Position numbers and translations under genes: made by a program
The notes under the pieces: generated by a model
What the model was told of the DNA's origin: nothing
The model's input: only the letters and a program-made list of their open reading frames with translations
Database searches by the model: none
Shown: positions 1 to 53,993 of the stretch, piece by piece
Layout of the letters: each line of letters begins with the position of its first letter
Position numbering within the stretch: the first letter of the stretch is position 1
DNA from: Giardia intestinalis
Taxonomy: Eukaryota
Length of the DNA stretch: 64,000 nt
NCBI GenBank assembly: GCA_000002435.2
Contig: CM018791.1
Reading direction: 5' to 3' (one strand)

Positions 1-885
1 AGAGATTTCTATAAGGTTGTCTTGTACAATCCACACTCAAAGAATGAGATAGTATCAGCTTCACTTTATATCATATCCGTAGGTGTATCTGGCACCTAAG
101 GGCTTTGAAAGACTCTTTGATTGTCAAAAATAATCATCTGACAATCACTTGACTATTGGAGCATGTAATTAGTGTAAATAGTGTATATTTCATTTTCATG
201 ATTTGAAAGGTATTTAGAATACGTTTTAAAGCAGCAACTCTTTTAAATTAGAAAGATATTTTGCTGATTTTGGTTTGACGTATATCACGACAGTCACTCT
301 GCTGTGCGCACTGTGAATTGCAAACCCCACAGCCTCGAAGCGTTCTGGAGACCAAAGCAGAATTACTCTCGCATTGGTAATAGGGGACCTTGGAGTCCCT
401 ATAGTAGTAAGCTTTCCTTTCAGAAGCCATCCCTTATGTTAATTAACTGTAATCAGCTACACTATGCATGTTTCAATACTCAACTGAGTCTTCATGTATG
501 ATCAGGTCAATCTCTGCAGTTAGATAGGCATTTAATAGCACCTGGTGTACTCTCAAGCTTTACACAATCTAATAGTTAATACCACAACATTTGTCAAGCC
601 TGTGAAAACATTGAAGAACCCACTTTTCATAGACGCTTTTCTACAACCGTTAATGATTTGATCAATACTCACTATAACGTCCCTCTACTACTGTACACCT
701 GCTGTAATATAAATTTAGTATGACAAAAGCTACCGATGAATGTTGTATATGAGTAGACATCCTCACTCCTTCACCACATCTTTTTTATTGGCAGAGGCTC
801 GGTCCTTAAGTGAGAGTACTAGTCTATTTCATCCTTGTTATAGAGAAAGTGTAAGCATTATTGCAAACCCAGAGATTGTAATTGA

Positions 886-3800
886 CAGGCATATACTACC
901 TCCATGTCTGCACTCTGGATGCAACAACCACAGCGCAGCTGCATCTCCGATCATTCTGTGCACGCCTTCTGGCACGGGCAGGTGCGCCGGAGGGGGTGTA
1001 CTGCCCACCGCCGAGAAATGGATGAGCTCCTGGTCGGCCCGCCCCGCCTGGAACTTAGAGACCGCCATTCACGGCCGTGAAGAGAGTTCTCGCAAGTAAA
1101 TCTCTCGGGTTGATTCACACGGCGGGTAACCATCCGGTAGAATTCCGTATTGAATTAACTCGCTTAATTAAAAAGTTAGTATCCACGACAATATGGTGAG
1201 GCCCTGCCTGACCGTGGAAAATCAGTCAAAGGTGCTGCGCTGGCTTGCCACAGAGATCATAAACGCAATCCATCCAGAGGAGACGGTGGAGGACCTTCTT
1301 GCAAACCCGTGTCTGCTCCACTCGTACATGCTCAAAACATCCGTGGACTGGCATTGGATCTCTAACGAGGTTGGCGTGGACGAGAAGAAGGTTTCTCGTT
1401 GGTACTATGAAACGCACCTGCGCCACATCCTAACTATAAAGATGACTAACGAAGACCGTGGAGAGATTCGCAAGATTATCATCAATTGGATCCGCTGCCA
1501 GCAAGTTCCAGACGAGCGGCTTTACCAAGCAATTCATGAGAAGTTTGGAAAGAAGTACTCGCGTCAAGAGCTACGGATGACGTACTACAATATGCTTAAC
1601 AGTCGTTGCATACGGGCCGTCCTTACTGAGTGCAATATTCAGCGTCCGACAAGGCGGAGAAGGCCTCCTGAAACAGAGCGTGCAGGGCTATCTTCCTCGA
1701 CCGTCCTTCACATACCCGGGTATGCTTCCGGTCCTCAACCAGCCCCCTTAGACCATAGAAAGTTGTCCCAGTCAAGTACTCACAAGTATTCTCCAGAAGC
1801 AGCCTCTTTCTCTCAGATTGACGTCAAGGCAGAAAGTGGACTGAATAACGATATTCCAGATGAACCCGTTACCTTTAGTCCTCTTGCATTCCAGAGCATT
1901 GCCCAACAGCAACCGTACATTAAGCTACTCAATCTACAGTCAGTCCCGCTCTCCCTCGATATTAACGGCCAATTAGCATGCATCCCCCTAATCATAGTTG
2001 AGCCAGGAGCCAACATCTGGTCCATTACTCCCAATGAGGAGCCAGTGGGAGGCGCTGGACAGTAGCGTTCTTTGGTATTGCTCTTCTAACTCATGATAAA
2101 GGATTTGCCGCCTTTTATCTTGCAGAAGACTAGACTTATCTGTACCCCACACTTGATTGCAGATGCAGCAGGACCATGTGCAGGCCATGAAGGTCACGCA
2201 TTGACAAAGCAAACTGGAATTATTCACAGAGGTGGTTTTTGGCAAACTTGTAATCTAGTGGCACGTCATCTTTGGGCTAAGTTGCCTAACTTCTAATCGT
2301 ATATCTACGGCTTCCCTATTTACGCGGTTCTTTGCAGGAGCTAGACCTACTGAAGCATACTTAGCACATAATTCCGCAGATGAGGATACGCGATAATATT
2401 ATCAGCATCCCAATCTCATTCTTGTCAATAACGAATGTATCGATCCACAGATGCTAGTTTCTATCAGCCGAATTAGACTCGCTTAGCAGCCCGTAGAGAT
2501 GATGTAGCTCACCACCGAAGTACTTCCACATCTGCTTTTTTCCGTTTTAGACATAAAGTTGGAACTCATTATTTACCCCGTCAATGATTTTCTGCGTTCA
2601 CTGATGGGTGTATATTATTCTATATTGTCAGTTATCTAGGGACCTCTTTCATAGGAGCGCCACATCAACCCCCTTTATGTTCCTCTTACATTTTATTATG
2701 TGCTTTACATCTTCTTGTCTATCAATATTCACACCCCCATGGATATGCCAGATACATATCTGTATCATATGCTACTGTGATCATAGGTTTGTTGTAAATA
2801 AGGGTGTGATCGGTACCACCACAGAACTCGTTAAACCCTGTCTGCCTTGAGAGTACGCTAATGGGACTACATGCTCAATCTGAGCAGATGTCTGTGGGCT
2901 TGTGTGCTAGCTGGAATAAGATAGGTGACTACTCTGTATGATCATCCTGTTATCATGATTAGGTAGCCGCGAAAGATTAGACGTCATTGCAGGAGCAGAC
3001 AAGGCACTAGGACAGCGATTTGCTTTCCAAGGATGACGTGGATTAATAGGTTAGTAGGCAGTTCTTGGATGCAGGAGTATTAGTGGATTTGTAGACTCGC
3101 GTAGTTATGCATACAGGTCATGGTAGGGGCTCTGGTAATTCTCTGATGGTGGCCCACTTTGGCAAGAGCTCAGCTGGGAAAGGCAAGGCGCTGGACGAGG
3201 ACGCGGAGAAAGTTCGGCACCCCGTGTTCCCACGACGTCTCCGATCGCAGTACTGGCGGGGCCTGACGGCGCTTCTCTTCTTAATTCGGAACGAGTTAAG
3301 GAGTTTCCGCCGTAGGATGGCCGAACTGGCGGCTGAGGGAGCTGTGCGATGTGTCAGAGATTGTTAGAGATTCATACTGTATATTGTGCAATGGCTAACG
3401 TGTATGGGTGTCCCACCGAAGACCCGGTGAAGGATGGCACCGGAGATGAGACAGGATGACCCCTGGTGGAGGAGACCACGGTGCGGGCTTGCCTGCAGAT
3501 GCCGTGGCTAAAATCTCAGCCCGTCCAGGAATCTAACAGAGATTATGCAGCCGGACACTGGGACCTACCGGAGAGCCGCATCGCCCCTGCACGAGCCAGC
3601 AAGCACTGCCTTCGACCCGACCACAGTTGGGAACGCTCATGTCCGTGGATGCCGTCGGTCAGGTCCCTGAAGACCACCCTGCTCACAGCCCCAGGGATCC
3701 CTCTGCAGACTCTGATTTCTATATCCCTGGGGTAGATGTTTGCGGATAGCGGCACAGGGCTCAGCAGAACCGCCAGAAGATCCGCAGCACACTGTCATTA

Positions 3801-4727
3801 ACTATAAACGTCTTGCGGTATTCATTCCATGGCTAAGCCACCAATAATGGCACTGGAACTGGAGTAAGACACTTCTAGGGTGCGACTACAGGACCGTGGA
3901 GGAGCTTCCTTCCCACGAAGGAGACCCTGCAGCTAGGGCGTGGTCCATCAACGCTTAGAACTGCACACCTTGGTAGAAGCAGAGCCAAGCCCACACTTAG
4001 AAATCGATGGCTGCCCTCTTGGACCCCGCACATGGTAATAGCTATAGAAAAGAGCTTGGGCAAGGAGATCACGCGGACCAGGTGTACCCGGACTGAGAAG
4101 CGTCTACTTCATCAAGTAACGGTAACCGGTCTATGCACACAGACCATGTTTGGCGGCAAGCTCCCCTGTAGCTCATGTATACACTGCGAACCGCTGCCTA
4201 GAGGCTTGCGTTGGAGATGCTGCAAGACACTAATGGTTGAAAGGTGTGACTAGCCGTTCTTCTAGATATCGTCTCTTTGGATGCGCCGGGTACCTAAGGC
4301 GATAGTCCAGCGCTGCACGCCTTGACTGCCACGGGCCTTGTGCATAGCCGACCAGGTGCCCGACACACGCCGCTTGGGAGTGCCCAGACCACACGGTGCC
4401 GTAATCGGGCTGCTAAGGTGCGAGAGATGGTGCACAGAGGCGCATATCAGAGCCAAGAGTCTGTGTGTCGCCTGCCTCTGGGTGGAATAGTTGTACAATA
4501 GTAGGGGGTGCTCATTGCCATACAGAAGCGGGCACGGCAAAACATGGAGGCGCGGTCCTACCGCAGGATTCGACGGATGCTCGGAGACAGGTGGTCCAAC
4601 GGTTTTATGGAATGACGGCGCAACGGCCATGGAGTGGGCAGGTGCAATAGGCGATGCGTTTACTACCTAAGTACACAGCTAAGTCTACGCCTTCCCCCTG
4701 CACAGGAACCACCAGCAGAGGAAGCCG
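886..4727. repeat. Left arm of a large inverted repeat, about 3.84 kb. It is the reverse complement of about 7763..11603. The inner end carries a VSP 3'-end remnant, and the arm contains one copy of a 290-aa Myb-like gene.
   Basis: Every six-frame ORF in 951..4650 reappears with identical translation on the opposite strand in 7839..11538, for example 1193..2065(+) = 10424..11296(-) and 4262..4630(-) = 7859..8227(+). Coordinate sums are constant at about 12489. The outer boundary was read at 886/11603, where the sequences diverge abruptly. One a/g mismatch was seen at 3925 versus 8564, giving V/I in the 65-aa ORFs. Confidence 0.85.
1193..2065 (+). CDS. Hypothetical protein with two tandem Myb/SANT-like repeats in the N-terminal 150 aa and a low-complexity C-terminal tail. 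This is the left-arm copy.
   Basis: A 290-aa ORF with an ATG start. The motifs ...DWHWISNEVGVDEKKVSRWYYETHL... and ...FGKKYSRQELRMTYYNMLN... resemble Myb repeats (W-x18-W and GKxxxQCRERWHNHLN-like with W replaced by Y). It is identical to 10424..11296(-) and about 40% identical over about 145 aa to the 12040..12849(-) paralog. Confidence 0.6.
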   Translation: MVRPCLTVENQSKVLRWLATEIINAIHPEETVEDLLANPCLLHSYMLKTSVDWHWISNEVGVDEKKVSRWYYETHLRHILTIKMTNEDRGEIRKIIINWIRCQQVPDERLYQAIHEKFGKKYSRQELRMTYYNMLNSRCIRAVLTECNIQRPTRRRRPPETERAGLSSSTVLHIPGYASGPQPAPLDHRKLSQSSTHKYSPEAASFSQIDVKAESGLNNDIPDEPVTFSPLAFQSIAQQQPYIKLLNLQSVPLSLDINGQLACIPLIIVEPGANIWSITPNEEPVGGAGQ

Positions 4728-4756
4728 ACGAGCACAGTGACAGCAATGTACAGGAA
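4685..4756 (-). pseudogene. VSP C-terminal remnant: a transmembrane-like segment plus the CRGKA tail and stop. It is oriented away from the intact VSP gene.
   Basis: The minus-strand ORF 4685..4906 ends ...FLYIAVTVLVGFLCWWFLCRGKA-stop. Only the last 23 codons or so are VSP-like, and the upstream part of the ORF has no VSP features such as CxxC. The last 14 codons, the stop and the AGTAAAC signal (reverse-complemented at 4658..4664) are identical to the intact VSP. The preceding LVG codons differ only at synonymous positions (ctc gtc ggc versus ctt gtg ggc). Confidence 0.7.
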
Positions 4757-4987
4757 TGCATCCCGAACAATCATTCCACAAGAGAGGTGCGGTCTGAGTC
4801 TAGCCTCAACTGGTCCTATTTCTATGGAAGTCAGGAGGAACTGCACTGTCAGCTGGCCTCCGGTGGGCGTACTCCTATCTCGTCCTTCTCCAGTCCAACT
4901 GATCAAGGAGAGTAAGAGCGGCTGTCTCTTACTGCTCGCGGTAACACATCAGCCTGACGGAAGAGCAGTGGCATACGAACCCGGCTA

Positions 4988-7804
4988 ATGTTGGTAGGAT
5001 TTCTCTTAGTTTTTGTGGTAACACAGGCCAACTGCGCACAAGAGCTGACCCAGGCAGGCTGCAAGACGTGTGTCGGGGCAGACGCCGCCCAGACGTGTAC
5101 GGAGTGCACAACTTCTGGACACAAGGTACAGCTCGATAAAAGAAGCTGCGGCCCCACCTGCCCGGCGCACTCCACGGCCAGCTCGAACGTCTGCGAGTGC
5201 GACCAGGGATACACGCCCAACGCCGGGAAGACCGCGTGCGAGCCCAATCCCAGCGCGGGATGCGCACAAGAGCTGACCCAGGCAGGCTGCAAGACGTGTG
5301 TCGGGGCAGACGCCGCCCAGACGTGTACGGAGTGCACAACTTCTGGACACAAGGTACAGCTCGATAAAAGAAGCTGCGGCCCCACCTGCCCGGCGCACTC
5401 CACGGCCAGCTCGAACGTCTGCGAGTGCGACCAGGGATACACGCCCAACGCCGGGAAGACCGCGTGCGAGCCCAATCCCAGCGCGGGATGCGCACAAGAG
5501 CTGACCCAGGCAGGCTGCAAGACGTGTGTCGGGGCAGACGCCGCCCAGACGTGTACGGAGTGCACAACTTCTGGACACAAGGTACAGCTCGATAAAAGAA
5601 GCTGCGGCCCCACCTGCCCGGCGCACTCCACGGCCAGCTCGAACGTCTGCGAGTGCGACCAGGGATACACGCCCAACGCCGGGAAGACCGCGTGCGAGCC
5701 CAATCCCAGCGCGGGATGCGCACAAGAGCTGACCCAGGCAGGCTGCAAGACGTGTGTCGGGGCAGACGCCGCCCAGACGTGTACGGAGTGCACAACTTCT
5801 GGACACAAGGTACAGCTCGATAAAAGAAGCTGCGGCCCCACCTGCCCGGCGCACTCCACGGCCAGCTCGAACGTCTGCGAGTGCGACCAGGGATACACGC
5901 CCAACGCCGGGAAGACCGCGTGCGAGCCCAATCCCAGCGCGGGATGCGCACAAGAGCTGACCCAGGCAGGCTGCAAGACGTGTGTCGGGGCAGACGCCGC
6001 CCAGACGTGTACGGAGTGCACAACTTCTGGACACAAGGTACAGCTCGATAAAAGAAGCTGCGGCCCCACCTGCCCGGCGCACTCCACGGCCAGCTCGAAC
6101 GTCTGCGAGTGCGACCAGGGATACACGCCCAACGCCGGGAAGACCGCGTGCGAGCCCAATCCCAGCGCGGGATGCGCACAAGAGCTGACCCAGGCAGGCT
6201 GCAAGACGTGTGTCGGGGCAGACGCCGCCCAGACGTGTACGGAGTGCACAACTTCTGGACACAAGGTACAGCTCGATAAAAGAAGCTGCGGCCCCACCTG
6301 CCCGGCGCACTCCACGGCCAGCTCGAACGTCTGCGAGTGCGACCAGGGATACACGCCCAACGCCGGGAAGACCGCGTGCGAGCCCAATCCCAGCGCGGGA
6401 TGCGCACAAGAGCTGACCCAGGCAGGCTGCAAGACGTGTGTCGGGGCAGACGCCGCCCAGACGTGTACGGAGTGCACAACTTCTGGACACAAGGTACAGC
6501 TCGATAAAAGAAGCTGCGGCCCCACCTGCCCGGCGCACTCCACGGCCAGCTCGAACGTCTGCGAGTGCGACCAGGGATACACGCCCAACGCCGGGAAGAC
6601 CGCGTGCGAGCCCAATCCCAGCGCGGGATGCGCACAAGAGCTGACCCAGGCAGGCTGCAAGACGTGTGTCGGGGCAGACGCCGCCCAGACGTGTACGGAG
6701 TGCACAACTTCTGGACACAAGGTACAGCTCGATAAAAGAAGCTGCGGCCCCACCTGCCCGGCGCACTCCACGGCCAGCTCGAACGTCTGCGAGTGCGACC
6801 AGGGATACACGCCCAACGCCGGGAAGACCGCGTGCGAGGTGGCCTCTAACACGCAGTGTAATACTCCCAACTGCAAGATCTGTGATAACCCCAAAACAGA
6901 CAATGAAATCTGCACTGAATGTAATGACGGCGACTACCTCACTCCAACAAAGCAGTGTACGCAAAGCTGCGGAGCAATAGGAAGCTACTACAACGGAGAC
7001 AAAGTGTGCGAGCCCTGTAATCCTAGCTGTGCTGCGTGCACCACAAAGGGACCAGCGAAGTGCACGCTGTGTCCTCCCGGGAAGAGGCTCCAGTACACAG
7101 ATGAGAACAGTCCATCAAGCGGTACTTGCGTAGATGAGTGCAAGCCCCAGAGTGGAGCTAGCGGATGCGAGACCTGCGGAGCCACCATCGGAGGGACAAA
7201 GTATTGCTCGAAGTGCAGCACATCCACGGAGGTCCCCGTCAACGGAGTCTGTACAGCAGACAATGCCCGCGCGCCCGTATGCTCGAAAAAGGACAATCAG
7301 GGAGGGTGCACTACGTGTGCCAGTGGGTACTTCCGCCAGGACAACGGCTGCTATAAGACTGACAGACAGCCAGGCAAACAGATATGTACACTAGCTGATA
7401 GCAATGGTGGATGTCAGGCGTGTGCCAATGGTCTTCCTCCTAGTTCTTCTGACGTATGCCCCTCGTGTCATTTCACCTGCAAGACATGCTCGACCGCAGA
7501 CACTGCAAATACTTGTACAACGTGTGCAACTGGGTACTATATGGTCGGATCAGCAGCTGGACCATGCACTTCGTGTGACAGCAACAGTGGAAGTGTCAAG
7601 GGAGTTGCTGGCTGCATGAGCTGCGCTCCTCCATCTAATAATCAAGGCTCCGTCCTTTGCTACCTCATAAAGGATACCGGTAGCACCAACAGGAGCGGCC
7701 TCTCCACGGGGGCCATCGTGGGGATCTTCGTCGCAGTCATCGTTGTTGTGGGGGGCCTTGTGGGCTTCCTCTGCTGGTGGTTCCTGTGCAGGGGGAAGGC
7801 GTAG
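4988..7804 (+). CDS. vsp: Variant-specific surface protein (VSP), 938 aa. It has an N-terminal signal peptide, eight identical 76-aa Cys-rich repeats, a CxxC-rich body, a transmembrane helix and the invariant CRGKA cytoplasmic tail.
   Basis: ATG at 4988. The N-terminus MLVGFLLVFVVTQANC is hydrophobic. The protein is about 12% Cys with many CxxC motifs. The C-terminus ...GAIVGIFVAVIVVVGGLVGFLCWWFLCRGKA is the hallmark of the Giardia VSP family. AGTAAAC follows 21 nt after the TAG stop. Confidence 0.95.
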   Translation: MLVGFLLVFVVTQANCAQELTQAGCKTCVGADAAQTCTECTTSGHKVQLDKRSCGPTCPAHSTASSNVCECDQGYTPNAGKTACEPNPSAGCAQELTQAGCKTCVGADAAQTCTECTTSGHKVQLDKRSCGPTCPAHSTASSNVCECDQGYTPNAGKTACEPNPSAGCAQELTQAGCKTCVGADAAQTCTECTTSGHKVQLDKRSCGPTCPAHSTASSNVCECDQGYTPNAGKTACEPNPSAGCAQELTQAGCKTCVGADAAQTCTECTTSGHKVQLDKRSCGPTCPAHSTASSNVCECDQGYTPNAGKTACEPNPSAGCAQELTQAGCKTCVGADAAQTCTECTTSGHKVQLDKRSCGPTCPAHSTASSNVCECDQGYTPNAGKTACEPNPSAGCAQELTQAGCKTCVGADAAQTCTECTTSGHKVQLDKRSCGPTCPAHSTASSNVCECDQGYTPNAGKTACEPNPSAGCAQELTQAGCKTCVGADAAQTCTECTTSGHKVQLDKRSCGPTCPAHSTASSNVCECDQGYTPNAGKTACEPNPSAGCAQELTQAGCKTCVGADAAQTCTECTTSGHKVQLDKRSCGPTCPAHSTASSNVCECDQGYTPNAGKTACEVASNTQCNTPNCKICDNPKTDNEICTECNDGDYLTPTKQCTQSCGAIGSYYNGDKVCEPCNPSCAACTTKGPAKCTLCPPGKRLQYTDENSPSSGTCVDECKPQSGASGCETCGATIGGTKYCSKCSTSTEVPVNGVCTADNARAPVCSKKDNQGGCTTCASGYFRQDNGCYKTDRQPGKQICTLADSNGGCQACANGLPPSSSDVCPSCHFTCKTCSTADTANTCTTCATGYYMVGSAAGPCTSCDSNSGSVKGVAGCMSCAPPSNNQGSVLCYLIKDTGSTNRSGLSTGAIVGIFVAVIVVVGGLVGFLCWWFLCRGKA
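5033..6838 (+). repeat. In-frame tandem array of 7.9 copies of a 228-bp unit inside the VSP gene. All full copies are identical at the nucleotide level.
   Basis: Alternate-frame ORFs recur at exactly 228-bp spacing (5070, 5298 ... 6666). The sequence lines at 5041-5100 and 6181-6240 (5 x 228 bp apart) are letter-for-letter identical. The unit encodes AGCAQELTQAGCKTCVGADAAQTCTECTTSGHKVQLDKRSCGPTCPAHSTASSNVCECDQGYTPNAGKTACEPNPS, with 10 Cys. The last copy diverges at ...KTACEVASNTQ. Confidence 0.95.
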
Positions 7805-7824
7805 ACTTAGCTGTGTACTTAGGT

Positions 7825-7831
7825 AGTAAAC
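7825..7831 (+). promoter_or_regulatory. Giardia polyadenylation signal AGTAAAC (consensus AGTPuAAPy) downstream of the VSP stop.
   Basis: agtaaac lies 21 nt 3' of the TAG at 7802..7804. A mirrored copy (gtttact) sits at 4658..4664 downstream of the remnant on the minus strand. Confidence 0.7.
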
Positions 7832-10423
7832 GCATCGCCTATTGCACCTGCCCACTCCATGGCCGTTGCGCCGTCATTCCATAAAACCGTTGGACCACCT
7901 GTCTCCGAGCATCCGTCGAATCCTGCGGTAGGACCGCGCCTCCATGTTTTGCCGTGCCCGCTTCTGTATGGCAATGAGCACCCCCTACTATTGTACAACT
8001 ATTCCACCCAGAGGCAGGCGACACACAGACTCTTGGCTCTGATATGCGCCTCTGTGCACCATCTCTCGCACCTTAGCAGCCCGATTACGGCACCGTGTGG
8101 TCTGGGCACTCCCAAGCGGCGTGTGTCGGGCACCTGGTCGGCTATGCACAAGGCCCGTGGCAGTCAAGGCGTGCAGCGCTGGACTATCGCCTTAGGTACC
8201 CGGCGCATCCAAAGAGACGATATCTAGAAGAACGGCTAGTCACACCTTTCAACCATTAGTGTCTTGCAGCATCTCCAACGCAAGCCTCTAGGCAGCGGTT
8301 CGCAGTGTATACATGAGCTACAGGGGAGCTTGCCGCCAAACATGGTCTGTGTGCATAGACCGGTTACCGTTACTTGATGAAGTAGACGCTTCTCAGTCCG
8401 GGTACACCTGGTCCGCGTGATCTCCTTGCCCAAGCTCTTTTCTATAGCTATTACCATGTGCGGGGTCCAAGAGGGCAGCCATCGATTTCTAAGTGTGGGC
8501 TTGGCTCTGCTTCTACCAAGGTGTGCAGTTCTAAGCGTTGATGGACCACGCCCTAGCTGCAGGATCTCCTTCGTGGGAAGGAAGCTCCTCCACGGTCCTG
8601 TAGTCGCACCCTAGAAGTGTCTTACTCCAGTTCCAGTGCCATTATTGGTGGCTTAGCCATGGAATGAATACCGCAAGACGTTTATAGTTAATGACAGTGT
8701 GCTGCGGATCTTCTGGCGGTTCTGCTGAGCCCTGTGCCGCTATCCGCAAACATCTACCCCAGGGATATAGAAATCAGAGTCTGCAGAGGGATCCCTGGGG
8801 CTGTGAGCAGGGTGGTCTTCAGGGACCTGACCGACGGCATCCACGGACATGAGCGTTCCCAACTGTGGTCGGGTCGAAGGCAGTGCTTGCTGGCTCGTGC
8901 AGGGGCGATGCGGCTCTCCGGTAGGTCCCAGTGTCCGGCTGCATAATCTCTGTTAGATTCCTGGACGGGCTGAGATTTTAGCCACGGCATCTGCAGGCAA
9001 GCCCGCACCGTGGTCTCCTCCACCAGGGGTCATCCTGTCTCATCTCCGGTGCCATCCTTCACCGGGTCTTCGGTGGGACACCCATACACGTTAGCCATTG
9101 CACAATATACAGTATGAATCTCTAACAATCTCTGACACATCGCACAGCTCCCTCAGCCGCCAGTTCGGCCATCCTACGGCGGAAACTCCTTAACTCGTTC
9201 CGAATTAAGAAGAGAAGCGCCGTCAGGCCCCGCCAGTACTGCGATCGGAGACGTCGTGGGAACACGGGGTGCCGAACTTTCTCCGCGTCCTCGTCCAGCG
9301 CCTTGCCTTTCCCAGCTGAGCTCTTGCCAAAGTGGGCCACCATCAGAGAATTACCAGAGCCCCTACCATGACCTGTATGCATAACTACGCGAGTCTACAA
9401 ATCCACTAATACTCCTGCATCCAAGAACTGCCTACTAACCTATTAATCCACGTCATCCTTGGAAAGCAAATCGCTGTCCTAGTGCCTTGTCTGCTCCTGC
9501 AATGACGTCTAATCTTTCGCGGCTACCTAATCATGATAACAGGATGATCATACAGAGTAGTCACCTATCTTATTCCAGCTAGCACACAAGCCCACAGACA
9601 TCTGCTCAGATTGAGCATGTAGTCCCATTAGCGTACTCTCAAGGCAGACAGGGTTTAACGAGTTCTGTGGTGGTACCGATCACACCCTTATTTACAACAA
9701 ACCTATGATCACAGTAGCATATGATACAGATATGTATCTGGCATATCCATGGGGGTGTGAATATTGATAGACAAGAAGATGTAAAGCACATAATAAAATG
9801 TAAGAGGAACATAAAGGGGGTTGATGTGGCGCTCCTATGAAAGAGGTCCCTAGATAACTGACAATATAGAATAATATACACCCATCAGTGAACGCAGAAA
9901 ATCATTGACGGGGTAAATAATGAGTTCCAACTTTATGTCTAAAACGGAAAAAAGCAGATGTGGAAGTACTTCGGTGGTGAGCTACATCATCTCTACGGGC
10001 TGCTAAGCGAGTCTAATTCGGCTGATAGAAACTAGCATCTGTGGATCGATACATTCGTTATTGACAAGAATGAGATTGGGATGCTGATAATATTATCGCG
10101 TATCCTCATCTGCGGAATTATGTGCTAAGTATGCTTCAGTAGGTCTAGCTCCTGCAAAGAACCGCGTAAATAGGGAAGCCGTAGATATACGATTAGAAGT
10201 TAGGCAACTTAGCCCAAAGATGACGTGCCACTAGATTACAAGTTTGCCAAAAACCACCTCTGTGAATAATTCCAGTTTGCTTTGTCAATGCGTGACCTTC
10301 ATGGCCTGCACATGGTCCTGCTGCATCTGCAATCAAGTGTGGGGTACAGATAAGTCTAGTCTTCTGCAAGATAAAAGGCGGCAAATCCTTTATCATGAGT
10401 TAGAAGAGCAATACCAAAGAACG

Positions 10424-11296
10424 CTACTGTCCAGCGCCTCCCACTGGCTCCTCATTGGGAGTAATGGACCAGATGTTGGCTCCTGGCTCAACTATGATTA
10501 GGGGGATGCATGCTAATTGGCCGTTAATATCGAGGGAGAGCGGGACTGACTGTAGATTGAGTAGCTTAATGTACGGTTGCTGTTGGGCAATGCTCTGGAA
10601 TGCAAGAGGACTAAAGGTAACGGGTTCATCTGGAATATCGTTATTCAGTCCACTTTCTGCCTTGACGTCAATCTGAGAGAAAGAGGCTGCTTCTGGAGAA
10701 TACTTGTGAGTACTTGACTGGGACAACTTTCTATGGTCTAAGGGGGCTGGTTGAGGACCGGAAGCATACCCGGGTATGTGAAGGACGGTCGAGGAAGATA
10801 GCCCTGCACGCTCTGTTTCAGGAGGCCTTCTCCGCCTTGTCGGACGCTGAATATTGCACTCAGTAAGGACGGCCCGTATGCAACGACTGTTAAGCATATT
10901 GTAGTACGTCATCCGTAGCTCTTGACGCGAGTACTTCTTTCCAAACTTCTCATGAATTGCTTGGTAAAGCCGCTCGTCTGGAACTTGCTGGCAGCGGATC
11001 CAATTGATGATAATCTTGCGAATCTCTCCACGGTCTTCGTTAGTCATCTTTATAGTTAGGATGTGGCGCAGGTGCGTTTCATAGTACCAACGAGAAACCT
11101 TCTTCTCGTCCACGCCAACCTCGTTAGAGATCCAATGCCAGTCCACGGATGTTTTGAGCATGTACGAGTGGAGCAGACACGGGTTTGCAAGAAGGTCCTC
11201 CACCGTCTCCTCTGGATGGATTGCGTTTATGATCTCTGTGGCAAGCCAGCGCAGCACCTTTGACTGATTTTCCACGGTCAGGCAGGGCCTCACCAT
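10424..11296 (-). CDS. Right-arm copy of the 290-aa Myb/SANT-like protein, identical to 1193..2065.
   Basis: Identical 290-aa translation in the ORF track. It lies within the inverted-repeat arm. Confidence 0.6.
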   Translation of the reverse strand: MVRPCLTVENQSKVLRWLATEIINAIHPEETVEDLLANPCLLHSYMLKTSVDWHWISNEVGVDEKKVSRWYYETHLRHILTIKMTNEDRGEIRKIIINWIRCQQVPDERLYQAIHEKFGKKYSRQELRMTYYNMLNSRCIRAVLTECNIQRPTRRRRPPETERAGLSSSTVLHIPGYASGPQPAPLDHRKLSQSSTHKYSPEAASFSQIDVKAESGLNNDIPDEPVTFSPLAFQSIAQQQPYIKLLNLQSVPLSLDINGQLACIPLIIVEPGANIWSITPNEEPVGGAGQ

Positions 11297-12039
11297 ATTG
11301 TCGTGGATACTAACTTTTTAATTAAGCGAGTTAATTCAATACGGAATTCTACCGGATGGTTACCCGCCGTGTGAATCAACCCGAGAGATTTACTTGCGAG
11401 AACTCTCTTCACGGCCGTGAATGGCGGTCTCTAAGTTCCAGGCGGGGCGGGCCGACCAGGAGCTCATCCATTTCTCGGCGGTGGGCAGTACACCCCCTCC
11501 GGCGCACCTGCCCGTGCCAGAAGGCGTGCACAGAATGATCGGAGATGCAGCTGCGCTGTGGTTGTTGCATCCAGAGTGCAGACATGGAGGTAGTATATGC
11601 CTGCCAAGACAGCACACGACTTCCCTACAGCTCCTTGGCGTGTCGGCGCGTGAAGACAGAGGGCCAGCCAGGGTGAATGTCGTGGCCGGCCAGCTGCACA
11701 TCAGCTTTAGCTCACGGCCCAGAGAGCATTCAGTCGCCTGTTACCGGACGGGCCTGTCTGGTAGATCGTTGGCCCAGACCGCGGTGTTCGAGTCGTCTGG
11801 GCACATGGGAGAGCCCTGCCTTCGTCTGCTGTGTGTGGTCTCTTCAACGATGCGCAGAATGTGGGTTGCGCGACATCCAGACCGTCGCAGCCTGCGTCTG
11901 GTGGGCCCTGCGCTGTGCCGTGGTTGAGCATGCTACACGCTCTAGACATGACGGTCTCGTCACTGACCAGGCTCCGGCCATTAGCTGCTCCTACCGACCA
12001 CTCTTCGCCAACCACCAAGCAAGCCGGGGTCTCCAGTCC

Positions 12040-12849
12040 TCAACCCTTACTGGGGCTCGCATCAGCGCACCCAGGCACGCCTCCGTAGCCCGCAGGGGGG
12101 AAGCATGGCACGCATGCGAATGCAACGGGCGACCCGAGGAGACCCTGGCCCGTCTGGAGCGGGAGGACGCCAGGCCCAGGAACGACCCCGGGCGGGAGGG
12201 CGAGGACGAGGCACCCCGGCGCGTGCGGGGGCAGAAGCGCAGAGACCGCGCCCGGGGCCACAAAGACCGGCCCCCCGACGGGCGGCACCAGCGGAGGCGC
12301 GGCGCAACCAAGAACGCAGGGGGGCGGGGGAGAGGCCGCCACAGGAGATGCCCCCTCCTCCTGCTTGGCCGCCCTCGGGCCGTATGTGCGGCGCGGCAGC
12401 ACCACCCCGTGCTCCTCCAGGGCGGCGCGGACGTCCTGGGTGCGGAGCGCGTTGTTGTACGTCATCCGCAGCTCCTGGCGCGGATACTTCGCCCCGAAGC
12501 GCTCGTGGACCCTGCGGTAGAAGTCCGGGCCCAGGATGCTCCGGTCCCTGACCCCGGCGATGATCATCGCCTTGATGGCCCTGCGGTCCTCGCCAGTCAT
12601 CTTCACGTTGAGGATGCTCCGCGAGTGCGTCTCGCGGTACCAGTGGTAGATCCTGCTCCGGTCCTCGGACAGGGCGCGGGCGATCTTCTTCCAGTCGATG
12701 GCCGTCCGGAGCACGTGCCGGTGGAGGAGCAGCGGCCGCCGCGCGAGGCTCTCGGCCGTCTCCCCCAGCCGCCGGGCAGCGACGACCTGCTTCGCGAGCT
12801 CGAGCAGAACGGAGGCGCGCGTCTCCGCCGTCATTGCCCCAGAGCCCAT
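12040..12849 (-). CDS. Diverged, GC-rich paralog (269 aa) of the 290-aa Myb/SANT-like protein found in the inverted-repeat arms.
   Basis: ATG confirmed (cat at 12847..12849 on the plus strand). The stretch ...LLHRHVLRTAIDWKKIARALSEDRSRIYHWYRETHSRSILNVKMTGEDRRAIKAMIIAGV...FYRRVHERFGAKYPRQELRMTYNNALR... aligns collinearly with LLHSYMLKTSVDWHWISNEVGVDEKKVSRWYYETHLRHILTIKMTNEDRGEIRKIIINWI...LYQAIHEKFGKKYSRQELRMTYYNMLN of the 290-aa protein. The C-terminal tail is Pro/Ala/Gly-rich and unrelated. Confidence 0.6.
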   Translation of the reverse strand: MGSGAMTAETRASVLLELAKQVVAARRLGETAESLARRPLLLHRHVLRTAIDWKKIARALSEDRSRIYHWYRETHSRSILNVKMTGEDRRAIKAMIIAGVRDRSILGPDFYRRVHERFGAKYPRQELRMTYNNALRTQDVRAALEEHGVVLPRRTYGPRAAKQEEGASPVAASPPPPCVLGCAAPPLVPPVGGPVFVAPGAVSALLPPHAPGCLVLALPPGVVPGPGVLPLQTGQGLLGSPVAFACVPCFPPAGYGGVPGCADASPSKG

Positions 12850-14260
12850 CCGATAGAAGCAGCGATAAAACTAAAAACAGACCAACGAATAATGTGAAAT
12901 TAAATATGTACAGGCCTTGCACAAAAGTTTTAGCGGGTGTTTGTTGCCTGCCTGCCCCGGTCCGTCGGGCGAGCAGGGCGCCCTCACCCGGGCCATCGCC
13001 GCAGTACGAGCTGGCTTAGGCCGCCACACAGAACAGACCGCTTTGCACACGGCGGCGTCGGGGTTGATGTATTGATCGGAGTTTTTTGGTATTGCCGGGA
13101 ACCCCCGCCCTCGGCCACCAGGGAGAGCCGCACTCTGCGCAGCCCCGGTTTGTCTGCATATGCCCAGAGCTCTGCGGAGGCGGGCAGGCTGGGACCGTCC
13201 TCCTCGTTCGGGGCATCGCCGACGACGAGCTGTTGCCTGCGGCCCGCGGGGTCTTCCGCTCTGAGAGGGGCCACCGAGTGTCGTGGGCCGCAGCGCTCTG
13301 CAAGGCCTGCACACGACCAGAGGCTGCCAAGTTTTTTGAGCAACTGGCTCTGGCGCGGATTCTGCGGACACCTGCTGCCGGCCCAGTCTACAGGGGCGCC
13401 CGCGTGTCTACTGTGGCCTGGCGTGCGTTTCTGCGCGTCCTCCTGCGGCGGCTCCCCTCGTGGCGCAGGAAGCCCTGCCTGTCCTCTCCCACCGGGTTCT
13501 CCCGACGTGCTCTCCACCGCACCCAGCCGAGGTTCCAGCGGACAAAGGAGCGGCATGACCCAATCAGTCGCCAGATTACATTGTGCTCTGGAGCTGCGAA
13601 TCTTGCTGGCATCTCATGCGACAGTGGCTCTGGGTGTGCCCGCTCAGCAGCAGCTACCTCATCCACAGAGTGCTGATGCAGATATTATGCGCTACGTATC
13701 AGTGACCACAAGGGCACCGATAGACAGGGTCTCAGCCTCAGTGCACAGCCAAGGTTGCCAAGCATAGCGAGGCTTACATACTGAGCATGGGTCCGTGCCC
13801 CGCGTGGTCTTCTTAAGAACTAGTGCATGAGTGCTCGTGAGACGACGCCCCATATGAGGCGGGCTATCCGTTGTACGCGAAGCACAGCACAGCAGAAGTG
13901 GGTGATGCAGGGACCAGAGGGGGTGCTTCAGCACATCAGTCGTCGGCCCCTCTGCCTTCTGTCGCGCCTGATGGACTCTCCTCTATTATCGCAACTCGGT
14001 CGCGGTTGTCTGAGGAGAGGACTAGGTACTCAGCAGACAATGGAATCGCGTGGCCTGGACGCGATTTCGTGATGGCCAACATGGGTTATCAGGCTGGCTG
14101 TGGTCTGGATATGTGGTACAGCTTCCTTCACTCAAGCAGGTACGTAGCATTTTCACTGGTGTATATTGCACAGCCCCTTGGCACCTGTACCCGAGGCCAA
14201 CACCGCACCAGCTTTCTGATCGCTAGGACTGCCCGGGTGCGGACAAGGTGCTTCGTTCAC

Positions 14261-15710: not shown

Positions 15711-18700
15711 ATGAGCTCTAAAACAGAGATCCCAATAATTACCGACGAGGGGGACTTTAGCGCTGAGTATGAAACGTTTTGTCAGGCAATGAACGGAGTT
15801 GCCGATGGAACATTCATCTGTGTGAGCGTTTTTGGACCACAGTCTTCCGGAAAGTCAACCCTTCTCAATGACCTTTTTGGGACTAGCTTCAAGACAATGG
15901 ACTTATCAGCGGGGCGAACTCAAACCACGAAAGGAATCATGGCACGTGCAGTAGACTTCCAAACGAAAGTCGCCCCTCGGGTTCTTATTCTAGATTGTGA
16001 AGGCTCAGATAGCCGCGAACGTAACCAGCAAGAGGCACAGAACATTGAAAGACACATAGGATGCTTTGCAGCTGCAGTGAGTGATCTGCTGATAATAAAT
16101 GTGTGGAACCACGATATAGGGCGCCACTCCGCTGCAAATTATAACATACTCTCTACCATCTTTGACATCTACTTTAGGTCCTTGCTTAAGGCACGTAGAA
16201 AATCAGGCAATCATAGGCCCTTAATTTTACTAATTGCAATCCGAGACGCCGAAGAGGACGGGGCAGAACTGACGCAAAGGACATTCGAGTCTGATGTTCA
16301 CCATATCTATGAGCAATCCGTTCCTAAGCAGTACCATGGCTCTTTCAGAGACTACTTCTGCCTGCGATTTTGGTTTATTCCTCACCGAAGATATATGAAA
16401 TCGTTGTACGATGAAAAGATTACGCAGCTAAAAACAGATATCAAGGAAATCTTCGATTCCTTACTCGGTGCTGAGACAGCAACCACTCTAATACCCCTTA
16501 CGGATTCGTCTATATACTATAACAACATCTGGGACATCGTTCGGACTGACAAAGACTTGGATATCCCAAGTCAGAGGGAGATAGTATCTAACATAAGATG
16601 CGAAGAATTCTATTTGGAGGCTATAGAGCAGTTTTCCTCGCAAGTCGGCAAAGTATTTGCAGATGTCACGGCAGCAATTCAGGTTTCCTTGGGTCAGCAA
16701 AGCTCAACCTTTTTGGAGCAGAGCCCGGACGCCGTTAAAGATTATCCTATAACAAAACTACATAACGCTTGCAATTCTTTCAAGCTAACAAAGGTTCTGA
16801 TGGATCTTTCACAAGAATGTGTCGCCTTGTATCGCAGAAAGACACGGCACTACATTCCCAAGGTGGTTACTCAATGGGCTACTAAGCTCAATGACGATGT
16901 TTTGGCCGGATTGAAGAAAGTGGCTCACAGCTTTGCAAAGGGCATCCGAGAGTCTACCTGCCAGGCACTAGGTGCTGTCACGGCTCCGTTTCGGGTACAG
17001 ATTACACAGTGGCTCGAGCGACACGAGTATAGCGATGACTACGCGTCCAATACTAATACGGTAGATATACTTGTACCAGATCTTATAAGCGACTTGACAT
17101 TCCCACAGAAGCGACTCACCGATCTTATGGGTTTGCTTGGTGCTGCGACAAGGGTGTTTCATAAGTGCATTTCTGTCAATTGGGCCCATGAGTATTCAGG
17201 TCTTTGTGATACCGGAATCCTCGTTAACCTACCACCAAATGATGTAGGGCCTAATTCTAATGTACGCATCGGTGACAACGCTATAGAAACGAATGCAGGC
17301 TCATCTGTCAGGTTGTCTGTCGGTTATGAGGCATCAGAGCCCATGGTGGACGCCCATATCGATGATTCTGGAGCCTTTTTCTCAGATATTAGGCAAACTG
17401 GAGTGTATTCGCCTCATCTTTATGCATTTCTGGAGAGTCTTTCGCTATCTACCTACGGGAAGGCGTTGTCGCTGCAGAAGTTGCCTGCCGCTCCTCCTGA
17501 TGTTGCCAACGCTTATGATGCTGTTTGCCTACTCCATACCATTATACTACTGTGGTACTGTGAAACAATGATGCCACTGAGTCTTATATATGACATCACA
17601 CCAGAGATAGACCACGTTATCCCAGAGTCCAATGCTCTCTTCTGCGAGACAATGGGCAGCATTTTGGCCGCCGTTGCGGAGGCTGTTTCCAGCCAGACAC
17701 GTACCATTACGGCGTCGATGACTCAAGCGACTGCACGCCTAATGGATGACAAACTCTACGTGACACTCGGATCTCTCCGAGGTGTTATTTATGAGTCAGC
17801 AAGAAAAACCCTTGAGCGCTCTTTCTTTTCGCTGCTCTCATCCGCCTTTGTCGCCCCCGATCACCAAGGACTGCTCTACTTGCAAACACGCCTCTCCAGC
17901 CCCTCAATTTACTTTGATCTTCACTTTGATTCCAGCTCCAGATCCAGCCCTACAGACTCTATTCTACCAGATACACAGAATCCTGTATATAAGCAGTATA
18001 CAGATATATATTTATTTTCGACGTTACCAGCTCTTCTCTCGCCGCTTCCACGAGCGTATAATACAGTAGGAACTCGTCTCTCGTCAGGGTCTAGCTCAAT
18101 CCAGTCGCTACTTCCTCGCTACAGAGCTGTCCCCATTGTAGCTGCTCTTGATATGTCTGCCTTTTACATTCCACAAGCAGCTTTGTCCTCGTTCATGGAT
18201 AGAGTTGACGCAGAGATAATAGAGTTAATTAATAAAAGTCTCGGGGAATTCTTCTCTAAGAGTTTTCCTCTAGTCCTGCAAAACAAGATACATACTAAGC
18301 TAGTATATGACGATCAAGGAGCACAGCGTTCTTACATTTCGGAGAATTCTATATTGACAGAGTTTCTTTCAGAGAAGAAAGGTCTCATATCTATGGCGCA
18401 GTTGTTTGAGGGAGGGACTCTTATAACAGAGAACCTGCATTCTGTGACAATAAAACCTACTTCGCAAGAAAAGATTGATGCTATGCTTCGGTGTGCTGAA
18501 GCAGAGTGGGATAAGACGTATCAAGAAGCCTTGGAAATATATCGTACCAACAAGCACAAGGATAAATATAAGTGGGTATGGTTAGGCCTGTGCGTTTTCC
18601 TTATGCTTACTCGCAAGTGGGTATATGCAGTTTTGCTAAGCAAGTACTGTCTCTGCATCACAATATTACTTCTTTCTGTTGGTCTTTTCGTTTATCAGCG

Positions 18701-34953: not shown

Positions 34954-35035
34954 GACAGTTTGGCCGAGTGGTTAAGGCGCTTGCCTGCTAAGCAAGTGTG
35001 CTCCGCACGCGTGGGTTCGAATCCCACAGCTGTCG
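34954..35035 (+). tRNA. tRNA-Ser(GCU), class II with a long variable arm.
   Basis: GACAGTT-TG-GCCGAGTGGTTAAGGCG-CTTGC-CTGCTAA-GCAAG-TGTGCTCCGCACGCG-TGGGTTCGAATCCCAC-AGCTGTC-G folds as a cloverleaf. The acceptor stem is 7 bp including one G-U pair. Box A is TGGCCGAGTGG and box B is GGTTCGAATCC. The anticodon is GCT. No CCA is encoded. It is nearly identical to eukaryotic tRNA-Ser(GCU) outside the acceptor and anticodon stems. Confidence 0.9.
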
Positions 35036-53777: not shown

Positions 53778-53993
53778 GGGCCTTAAGTGAAGGAAAAATT
53801 AAAAGGGTACGGTAGCAGGTCTGAGAGCACTGCCCCGTGACCAGTGCCAGCGCGGTATGCGCAGCACCAGCCTGGCCCGAACACTGGCTCGTCGCCACCC
53901 TTGAGGTAAGTTAAAATTACCTTCAATTTTTGACCTGCTCAATTTCGTCCCAAAAATTGCGCAGGAGAGTCCTTCAGAAGAAGGTGCAGCCAA

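Follow-up and report, generated by a model that had tools for sequence, protein, structure and literature searches.

The 64-kb window analysed here (a stretch of 64,000 nucleotides from Giardia intestinalis WB) carries a perfect palindrome with a gene for a variant-specific surface protein (VSP) in its loop. Each arm holds an identical copy of a gene coding for a protein of 290 amino acids (aa), and a GC-rich paralog of this gene lies just outside the right arm. Our results indicate, with moderate confidence, that these three open reading frames (ORFs) belong to a lineage-specific, divergent homeodomain-like family of nuclear proteins of diplomonads that are probably DNA-binding, and that the family gene was duplicated at this locus as a passenger. 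The features on which this reading rests are as follows (lengths in nucleotides, nt).

882..4732, no strand: left arm of the inverted repeat, 3851 nt, 100% complementary to its partner, the right arm, with a 3024-nt loop.
882..1030 and 11459..11607, no strand: shared module of ~150 nt upstream of the arm gene, defined by a six-way alignment and blastn.
1193..2065, plus strand: left copy of the arm family gene, an ORF of 290 aa (GL50803_00116968).
3209..3328, minus strand: 5S rRNA gene of the left arm, full length (Rfam RF00001, 88.3 bits).
4685..4795, minus strand: diverged C-terminal remnant of a VSP, with the tail …FLCWWFLCRGKA, where the left arm meets the loop.
4988..7804, plus strand: loop VSP gene, 938 aa, with eight 228-nt tandem repeats and the C-terminal end CRGKA.
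7757..11607, no strand: right arm of the inverted repeat, its innermost 48 nt being the true 3' end of the VSP ORF.
9161..9280, plus strand: 5S rRNA gene of the right arm, full length (Rfam search).
10424..11296, minus strand: right copy of the arm family gene, its 290-aa product identical to that of the left copy.
11459..13612, minus strand: dispersed GC-rich repeat unit, made up of ~760 nt upstream, the paralog gene and ~580 nt downstream.
12040..12849, minus strand: GC-rich paralog, 269 aa, 100% identical to GL50803_0061066.

From its outer to its inner end the left arm is thus composed of the ~150-nt module, the promoter, the family gene, the 5S rRNA gene and VSP 3' tail sequence. Both ORFs of the arm gene lie inside the 100%-complementary repeat, in agreement with the original prediction of two identical copies, and their product is 100% identical to GL50803_00116968, which is deposited under two accessions, KAE8302796.1 and KAE8302798.1. 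GL50803_00116968 and GL50803_0061066 are both found on the 1.97-Mb chromosome sequence of WB. An AT-rich, initiator-like stretch is present immediately 5' of the ATG in the arm gene and the GC-rich paralog alike; in the arm gene, where it was read directly from the sequence, it is the promoter-like TTAATTAAAAAG, 17-28 nt upstream of the ATG. The relic of the VSP C-terminus, within an ORF at 4685..4906, extends 63 nt past the perfect left arm and sits beside the 5' region of the real VSP (tblastn, 60% identity over 40 aa), and no other VSP-like coding remnant was detected by tblastn in the 2.6-kb spacer of the arm. The VSP repeats themselves (5033-6928) are eight head-to-tail units of 228 nt (76 aa), seven of them 100% identical and the last 78%, and the strand opposite them carries long spurious ORFs. 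Contigs with the arm gene from short-read assemblies are all ~2.2 kb, too short to show its context.

The arm protein and the paralog can be aligned without gaps over aa 6-154 (149 aa) at 42% identity (BLASTP, E=6e-41), which confirms the homology over the N-terminal ~145 aa that had been proposed. No similarity between their C-terminal tails was found by BLASTP, again as proposed, with the possible exception of a short [FL]AC[IV]P motif near the C-terminus that may be common to both. The paralog is located 432 nt outside the arm end in the orientation of the right-arm copy, as first described, and its shift in base composition is equally clear: GC content is 0.72 and GC at third codon positions (GC3) is 0.874, reaching 0.955 in the N-terminal domain, versus 0.50 and 0.557 in the arm gene. 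This GC3 is an outlier in the window, where the 22 other long ORFs span 0.40-0.75.

The description of these proteins as a three-member family holds solely inside the window, where tblastn found no members beyond the three; genome-wide the family is far larger, with at least 11 members in WB and relatives in other diplomonads. The GC-rich subfamily alone accounts for at least seven WB genes at 90% protein identity or more on at least four chromosome-scale sequences (GL50803_0061066, GL50803_0060974, d60974, 00103981, 00137682, 00114778 and 00112150, on four such sequences). More distant WB members are GL50803_0010241, which shares 47% identity with the arm protein, and the 639-aa GL50803_0038275. 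When 1.84 billion representatives were searched exhaustively with a HMMER profile, 67 clusters were returned at E<1e-3, and the named relatives came exclusively from Giardia, Spironucleus salmonicida, Hexamita inflata and Trepomonas PC1, annotated as hypothetical throughout. Comparison of the WB arm gene with its ortholog in isolate P15 (assemblage E) gave a dN/dS of 0.108 overall; the first 155 codons have a ratio of 0.028 and the tail one of 0.207. These ratios indicate strong purifying selection on the arm gene between the two isolates, and they bear out the view that the proteins are real as well as homologous.

Family members tend to come in pairs, as seen in the window and at two other loci (L001 and L019). 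A further pair, GL50803_0060974 and d60974 (KAE8302586.1 and KAE8302588.1), consists of identical GC-rich genes on the same chromosome, outside the window, whose accessions flank one gene, KAE8302587. Since these accessions bracket a single gene, as those of the arm copies do in the window, the pair points to a second palindrome built in the same way.

The conserved N-terminal domain of ~150 aa consists of a long leading helix, a three-helix helix-turn-helix (HTH) and a second helical bundle. It is followed by a basic stretch, likely a nuclear localisation signal, and then by a fast-evolving low-complexity tail. The AlphaFold2 model of aa 1-157 has nine helices and a confidence (pLDDT) of 84.7. 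Two units follow the leading helix.

1280..1438, plus strand: first three-helix unit of the arm gene, aa ~30-82, W53..IA..G..KKVSRWYYETHLR, a Myb/SANT/homeodomain-like helix-turn-helix.
1439..1630, plus strand: second helical unit of the arm gene, aa 83-146, ..FGKKYSRQELRMTYYNML.., a four-helix bundle.

The predicted structure of the first unit is a three-helix bundle with helix-turn-helix geometry, and its sequence (WHWISNEVGVDEKKVSRWYYETHLR), read directly, follows the helix-2/short-turn/helix-3 pattern of homeodomain-like HTHs. Among 51 diverse family members the nearly invariant residues are W53, Y68, W70, T74 and R77. The Myb/SANT-type structural matches vanish when the second unit is searched alone, and the signal therefore comes from the first unit; the likeness of the second to Myb or homeodomain folds is ambiguous. 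As for the aromatic core residues, W53 and W70 of the first unit are nearly invariant, with no conserved aromatic at the first position, and the second unit has just Y111 and Y131. The domain does not show two tandem repeats of one type as in R2R3 proteins. The original prediction had described two Myb-like repeats, but no profile supports them, structural support is restricted to the first unit, and the motif quoted in their favour (GK..RQELRMTYYN) falls in the second, less Myb-like one.

Compared with Myb/SANT domains (PF00249 and relatives, such as c-Myb R2R3, WER, CPC, the Ada2 SANT domain and Cdc5/CEF1), the first unit is likewise modelled as a three-helix HTH bundle with core aromatics at helices 2 and 3 (W53 in 'W..IA' and W70 in 'RWYYE'), and the arm protein shares with them a nuclear location. 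However, the first tryptophan of the triad is absent, the turn between helices 2 and 3 is homeodomain-like in its length of 3 residues, where Myb has ~5, an extra long helix precedes the unit, the second unit is not recognisably Myb-like, and no family member matches a profile at its curated cut-off. The short turn and the pattern 'IA..lG......V..W[FY]....R' are instead reminiscent of homeodomain and transposase-type HTHs and weakly match helices 2-3 of DUX4. The layout of two helical units also occurs in the bipartite domains of Tc3 and paired proteins. Here too there are differences, since every family match to homeodomain, HTH_23 and HTH_28 profiles is below threshold, with hhalign probabilities under 6%, the N-terminal arm of homeodomains is missing and the protein has no transposase catalytic domain. 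Among the 51 relatives, Pfam gave recurrent sub-threshold matches to the HTH clan (HTH_23 in 16, Myb_DNA-bind_8 in 7, HTH_28 in 6 and Myb_DNA-bind_6 in 4) and, where located, all of them fell on the first unit, at aa ~30-85. HTH_23 was the commonest, in 16 of 51 relatives at E<=1 with a best E of 6.7e-4, and stayed under its 24.6-bit cut-off in the members inspected; the best Myb-type score, for Myb_DNA-bind_6, was 16.7 bits against a curated cut-off of 22.9. Taken together, the domain is best described, on the basis of the model, as a divergent HTH of the homeodomain-like/Myb-like kind, to which a second helical bundle is joined, with no demonstrable membership of Myb/SANT and no R2R3-type pair.

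A 2026 localisation atlas found GL50803_00116968-GFP in both nuclei and re-annotated the protein as a 'nuclear diplomonad conserved protein', in a proteome of which ~40% is functionally uncharacterised according to the same work (PMC13322205). This localisation fits a chromatin or DNA-binding role of the arm protein without demonstrating it. We suggest that the family may act as chromatin- or DNA-binding factors in which the domain would bind nucleic acid and the tail would recruit partners. The putative DNA-binding function named in the original prediction is plausible from the fold of the first unit and the nuclear GFP fusion, but the Myb/SANT membership that accompanied it was not recovered in Pfam.

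Several results weigh against this interpretation. Neither window protein matched any Pfam family, Myb/SANT profiles included, even at E<=10. A sequence search of the PDB and a search with the 51-sequence profile were non-significant, with a DUX4 homeodomain at E=1.4, and Foldseek with the whole-domain model found nothing in the PDB below E=0.79. hhalign probabilities of the family profile with single c-Myb, Antp, En, Pax6, TRF1 and Tc3 sequences account for the values under 6% cited above. No profile-level link to any DNA-binding family emerged from the Pfam, PDB or hhalign comparisons. Moreover, SANT-type and Cdc5-type domains bind histones or RNA, not DNA. The proteins could be nuclear without being sequence-specific DNA binders, contacting histone tails, chromatin enzymes or RNA in the SANT/Cdc5 manner, and the incomplete tryptophan triad, seen directly in the sequence, and a second unit with no clear DNA-reading homolog would be expected of such proteins. 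The helix-2/turn/helix-3 segment (IA..G....V.RWYYETH.R) is, however, basic and resembles the recognition helices of homeodomains and transposases, and the weak DUX4 and HTH_23 matches point the same way; we regard this alternative as rather unlikely, though it deserves to be kept in mind.

Although the paralog had been described as drifted to extreme GC content, our results place it in a homogenised, multi-copy subfamily, the genes of which reside on a dispersed repeat unit at least 2 kb long. The window segment 11459-13612 is 93.9% identical over 2155 nt to a locus (L005) whose neighbours are annexin and RING genes, and 12078-13659 is 94.6% identical to another (L018, with the gene DHA2_153281). 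Between loci the unit is 93-96% identical, flanks included, and in further copies homology runs on up to ~3 kb downstream; in the window the final 149 nt of the unit fall within the right arm, at its outer end. The ORF is intact and the domain nearly invariant in all five copies compared, which come from three isolates and four loci; their tails evolve faster than the domain and contain indels. Synonymous divergence (dS) between assemblages A and E is 0.10 in the GC-rich domain versus 0.40 in the arm gene. GC-biased ectopic gene conversion would account best for the extreme GC3 and the uniformity of the copies, and codon selection would be an alternative source of both. The copies are thus consistent with segmental duplication and GC-biased ectopic conversion, or with strong codon selection, and not with simple drift.

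The spread of copies at unlinked loci, 93-96% identical with ~760 nt of upstream and downstream flank included, could also be read as that of a mobile element, or the family could derive from the DNA-binding domain of a domesticated transposase, as the weak matches to HTH_23, HTH_28 and HTH_Tnp_1 might suggest. Nevertheless, no terminal inverted repeats were found around the unit (window 11300-13800 and L018 9100-13700), Pfam detected no catalytic domain in the paralog protein, one copy occupies an orthologous position in DHA2 (assemblage A2) and P15, and the ends of the copies vary among loci, as expected of segmental duplication or conversion. We consider either origin highly improbable. At another locus (L001) a 5'-truncated unit was observed, about 90% identical between L001 11149-14097 and L018 10515-13559, which comprises the C-terminal coding part and ~3 kb downstream, adjoins a GL50803_0010241-type gene in DHA2 and lies close to a reverse-transcriptase (RVT_1) gene.

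The proposed tie between the family and VSP genes did not extend beyond particular loci. A VSP was present within ~10 kb at two of six distinct family loci, drawn from several isolates: the window locus (in WB, DHA2 and P15) and L005, where the 3' end of a VSP lies ~3 kb downstream of the GC-rich copy. None was found within ~10 kb at the other four, namely L001/L022 (orthologs of GL50803_0010241), L018, L019 (two P15 members 6.8 kb apart) and L020, as judged by tblastn at L001, L018 and L019 and by Pfam matches on called genes at L022 and L020. Family members are therefore not consistently adjacent to VSP genes. The scattering without VSP association that was expected to refute the tie was seen at four of the six loci and not at the remaining two, and the VSP association appears to reflect local duplication history and not a property of the family.

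A locus-specific regulator had also been envisaged. On such a reading the gene would sit in the VSP palindrome because its product binds and regulates the VSP there, or else the neighbouring 5S genes, in cis-proximity. WB, DHA2 and P15 do all retain the gene next to the VSP, towards which it is oriented convergently, the two stop codons being about 2.6 kb apart; the GC-rich copy at L005 has its own VSP 3' end nearby, and the arm protein is nuclear. Against this, relatives occur in diplomonads outside Giardia, four other loci have no VSP in the same range, the P15 gene lies outside the inverted repeat, and trans-acting factors of eukaryotes do not need to be encoded beside their targets. We give this explanation very little weight. 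The bolder proposal that the family represents unrecognised, diplomonad-specific regulators with sequence-specific DNA binding, and that the palindrome copy acts on the 5S-VSP-5S locus, perhaps as a mark of a VSP cassette that is silenced or can be inverted, is similarly remote. The passenger of a duplicating unit, offered as an alternative in the original prediction, fits best, as the P15 ortholog is single and outside the repeat and the palindrome boundary falls at the shared module.

Comparison across assemblages supports this passenger reading. In P15 (L017) the left flank is syntenic and the arm-gene ortholog, 91% identical in aa, occurs once, on the left flank outside the inverted repeat, with a VSP 2.6 kb downstream on the opposite strand; the assembly to the right of the P15 palindrome could be incomplete. 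A shorter inverted repeat of about 1.2 kb, with 96% complementarity, brackets the P15 VSP, and its outer ends are exactly two inverted 5S genes, L017 12272-12391 on the minus strand and 17195-17314 on the plus strand. Because the WB arms and the ends of the P15 repeat both carry inverted 5S genes, the 5S-VSP-5S inverted structure is conserved between assemblages A and E. A literature search found no paper that connects 5S rRNA genes with VSP loci. A gene for a cysteine-rich VSP-like protein of 578 aa lies on the other side of the P15 family gene (L017 6843-8579, minus strand); nothing equivalent is present in the DHA2-like left flank (L015).

In DHA2 both flank contigs terminate inside the arms, and the GC-rich paralog and the arm gene are present in tandem. 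The orientation of the loop differs among isolates: the WB VSP is on the strand of the left family gene and the P15 VSP on the opposite one (window 4733-7756; L017 13682-16249), and in a DHA2 contig (L014 13517-14071) the right flank is continuous with the 5' end of the VSP, an arrangement inverted with respect to WB that is possibly an assembly ambiguity. These differences fit flip-flop inversion between the arms. A copy of the N-terminal 56 aa of the VSP is also found beside the real VSP 3' end in P15 (L017 13335-13493, plus strand).

At its outer limits (882 / 11607) the 10.7-kb palindrome stops at the edge of the ~150-nt module. Copies of this module occur upstream of the arm gene in WB, A2 and P15 (in P15 at L017 ~9865-10013), and others in the 3' flank of the GC-rich units at two unrelated loci, L005 (11210-11359) and L018 (~11436-11565). 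The module exists in two sequence variants and has no Rfam match. Since the arm boundary coincides with a module also present in the 3' flank of GC-rich units, a homology-mediated junction at the outer boundary is suggested. In the most parsimonious history, an older inverted repeat with two inverted 5S rRNA genes around a VSP would predate the split of assemblages A and E, the identical tract would have expanded outward in assemblage A across the neighbouring family gene, and the expansion would have halted at the ~150-nt module also found at the 3' end of the adjacent GC-rich unit. Duplication of the arm gene at this locus is then structural, not functional. The suggestion that the palindrome formed across one member of a tandem pair agrees with the conservation of that pair in A2 but not with the outgroup P15, in which the gene occurs once and outside the repeat; a split tandem pair is possible as the origin of the palindrome, yet not required.

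Inverted VSP pairs have been described in Giardia WB (Xu et al. 2020, PMC7000408, Table 2), and the window locus resembles them in that the inverted duplication at the VSP is perfect, the spacing past the VSP stop codon is ~2.6 kb and the surroundings are poor in genes. The difference is that those pairs duplicate the VSP itself, whereas here the VSP is single, in the loop, and the duplicated elements are the flanking family gene and the 5S rRNA gene. Elsewhere in the window we observed a Giardia U1 spliceosomal snRNA gene at 53791-53911 on the minus strand (Rfam RF02491, 149 bits) and a tRNA gene at 34954-35035 on the plus strand.

The arm gene was already annotated and localised, and the localisation atlas was the only work found when the literature was searched by gene ID; the new contributions here are the assignment of a fold, the census of the family and the history of the locus. 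The original sequence observation was sound but framed too narrowly. The Myb/SANT label is valid at the level of the fold alone and for one unit alone. For VSP biology the outcome is mainly negative, and a VSP held between inverted 5S rRNA genes, conserved in assemblages A and E with differing loop orientation, may be of more interest to those who study the dynamics of VSP loci. Few transcription factors of Giardia can be recognised by sequence. The assignment of a nuclear, strongly conserved and diplomonad-wide family to a homeodomain-like/Myb-like HTH fold provides candidates for these missing regulators, and a strain with GFP-tagged GL50803_00116968 already exists in which binding sites could be mapped.

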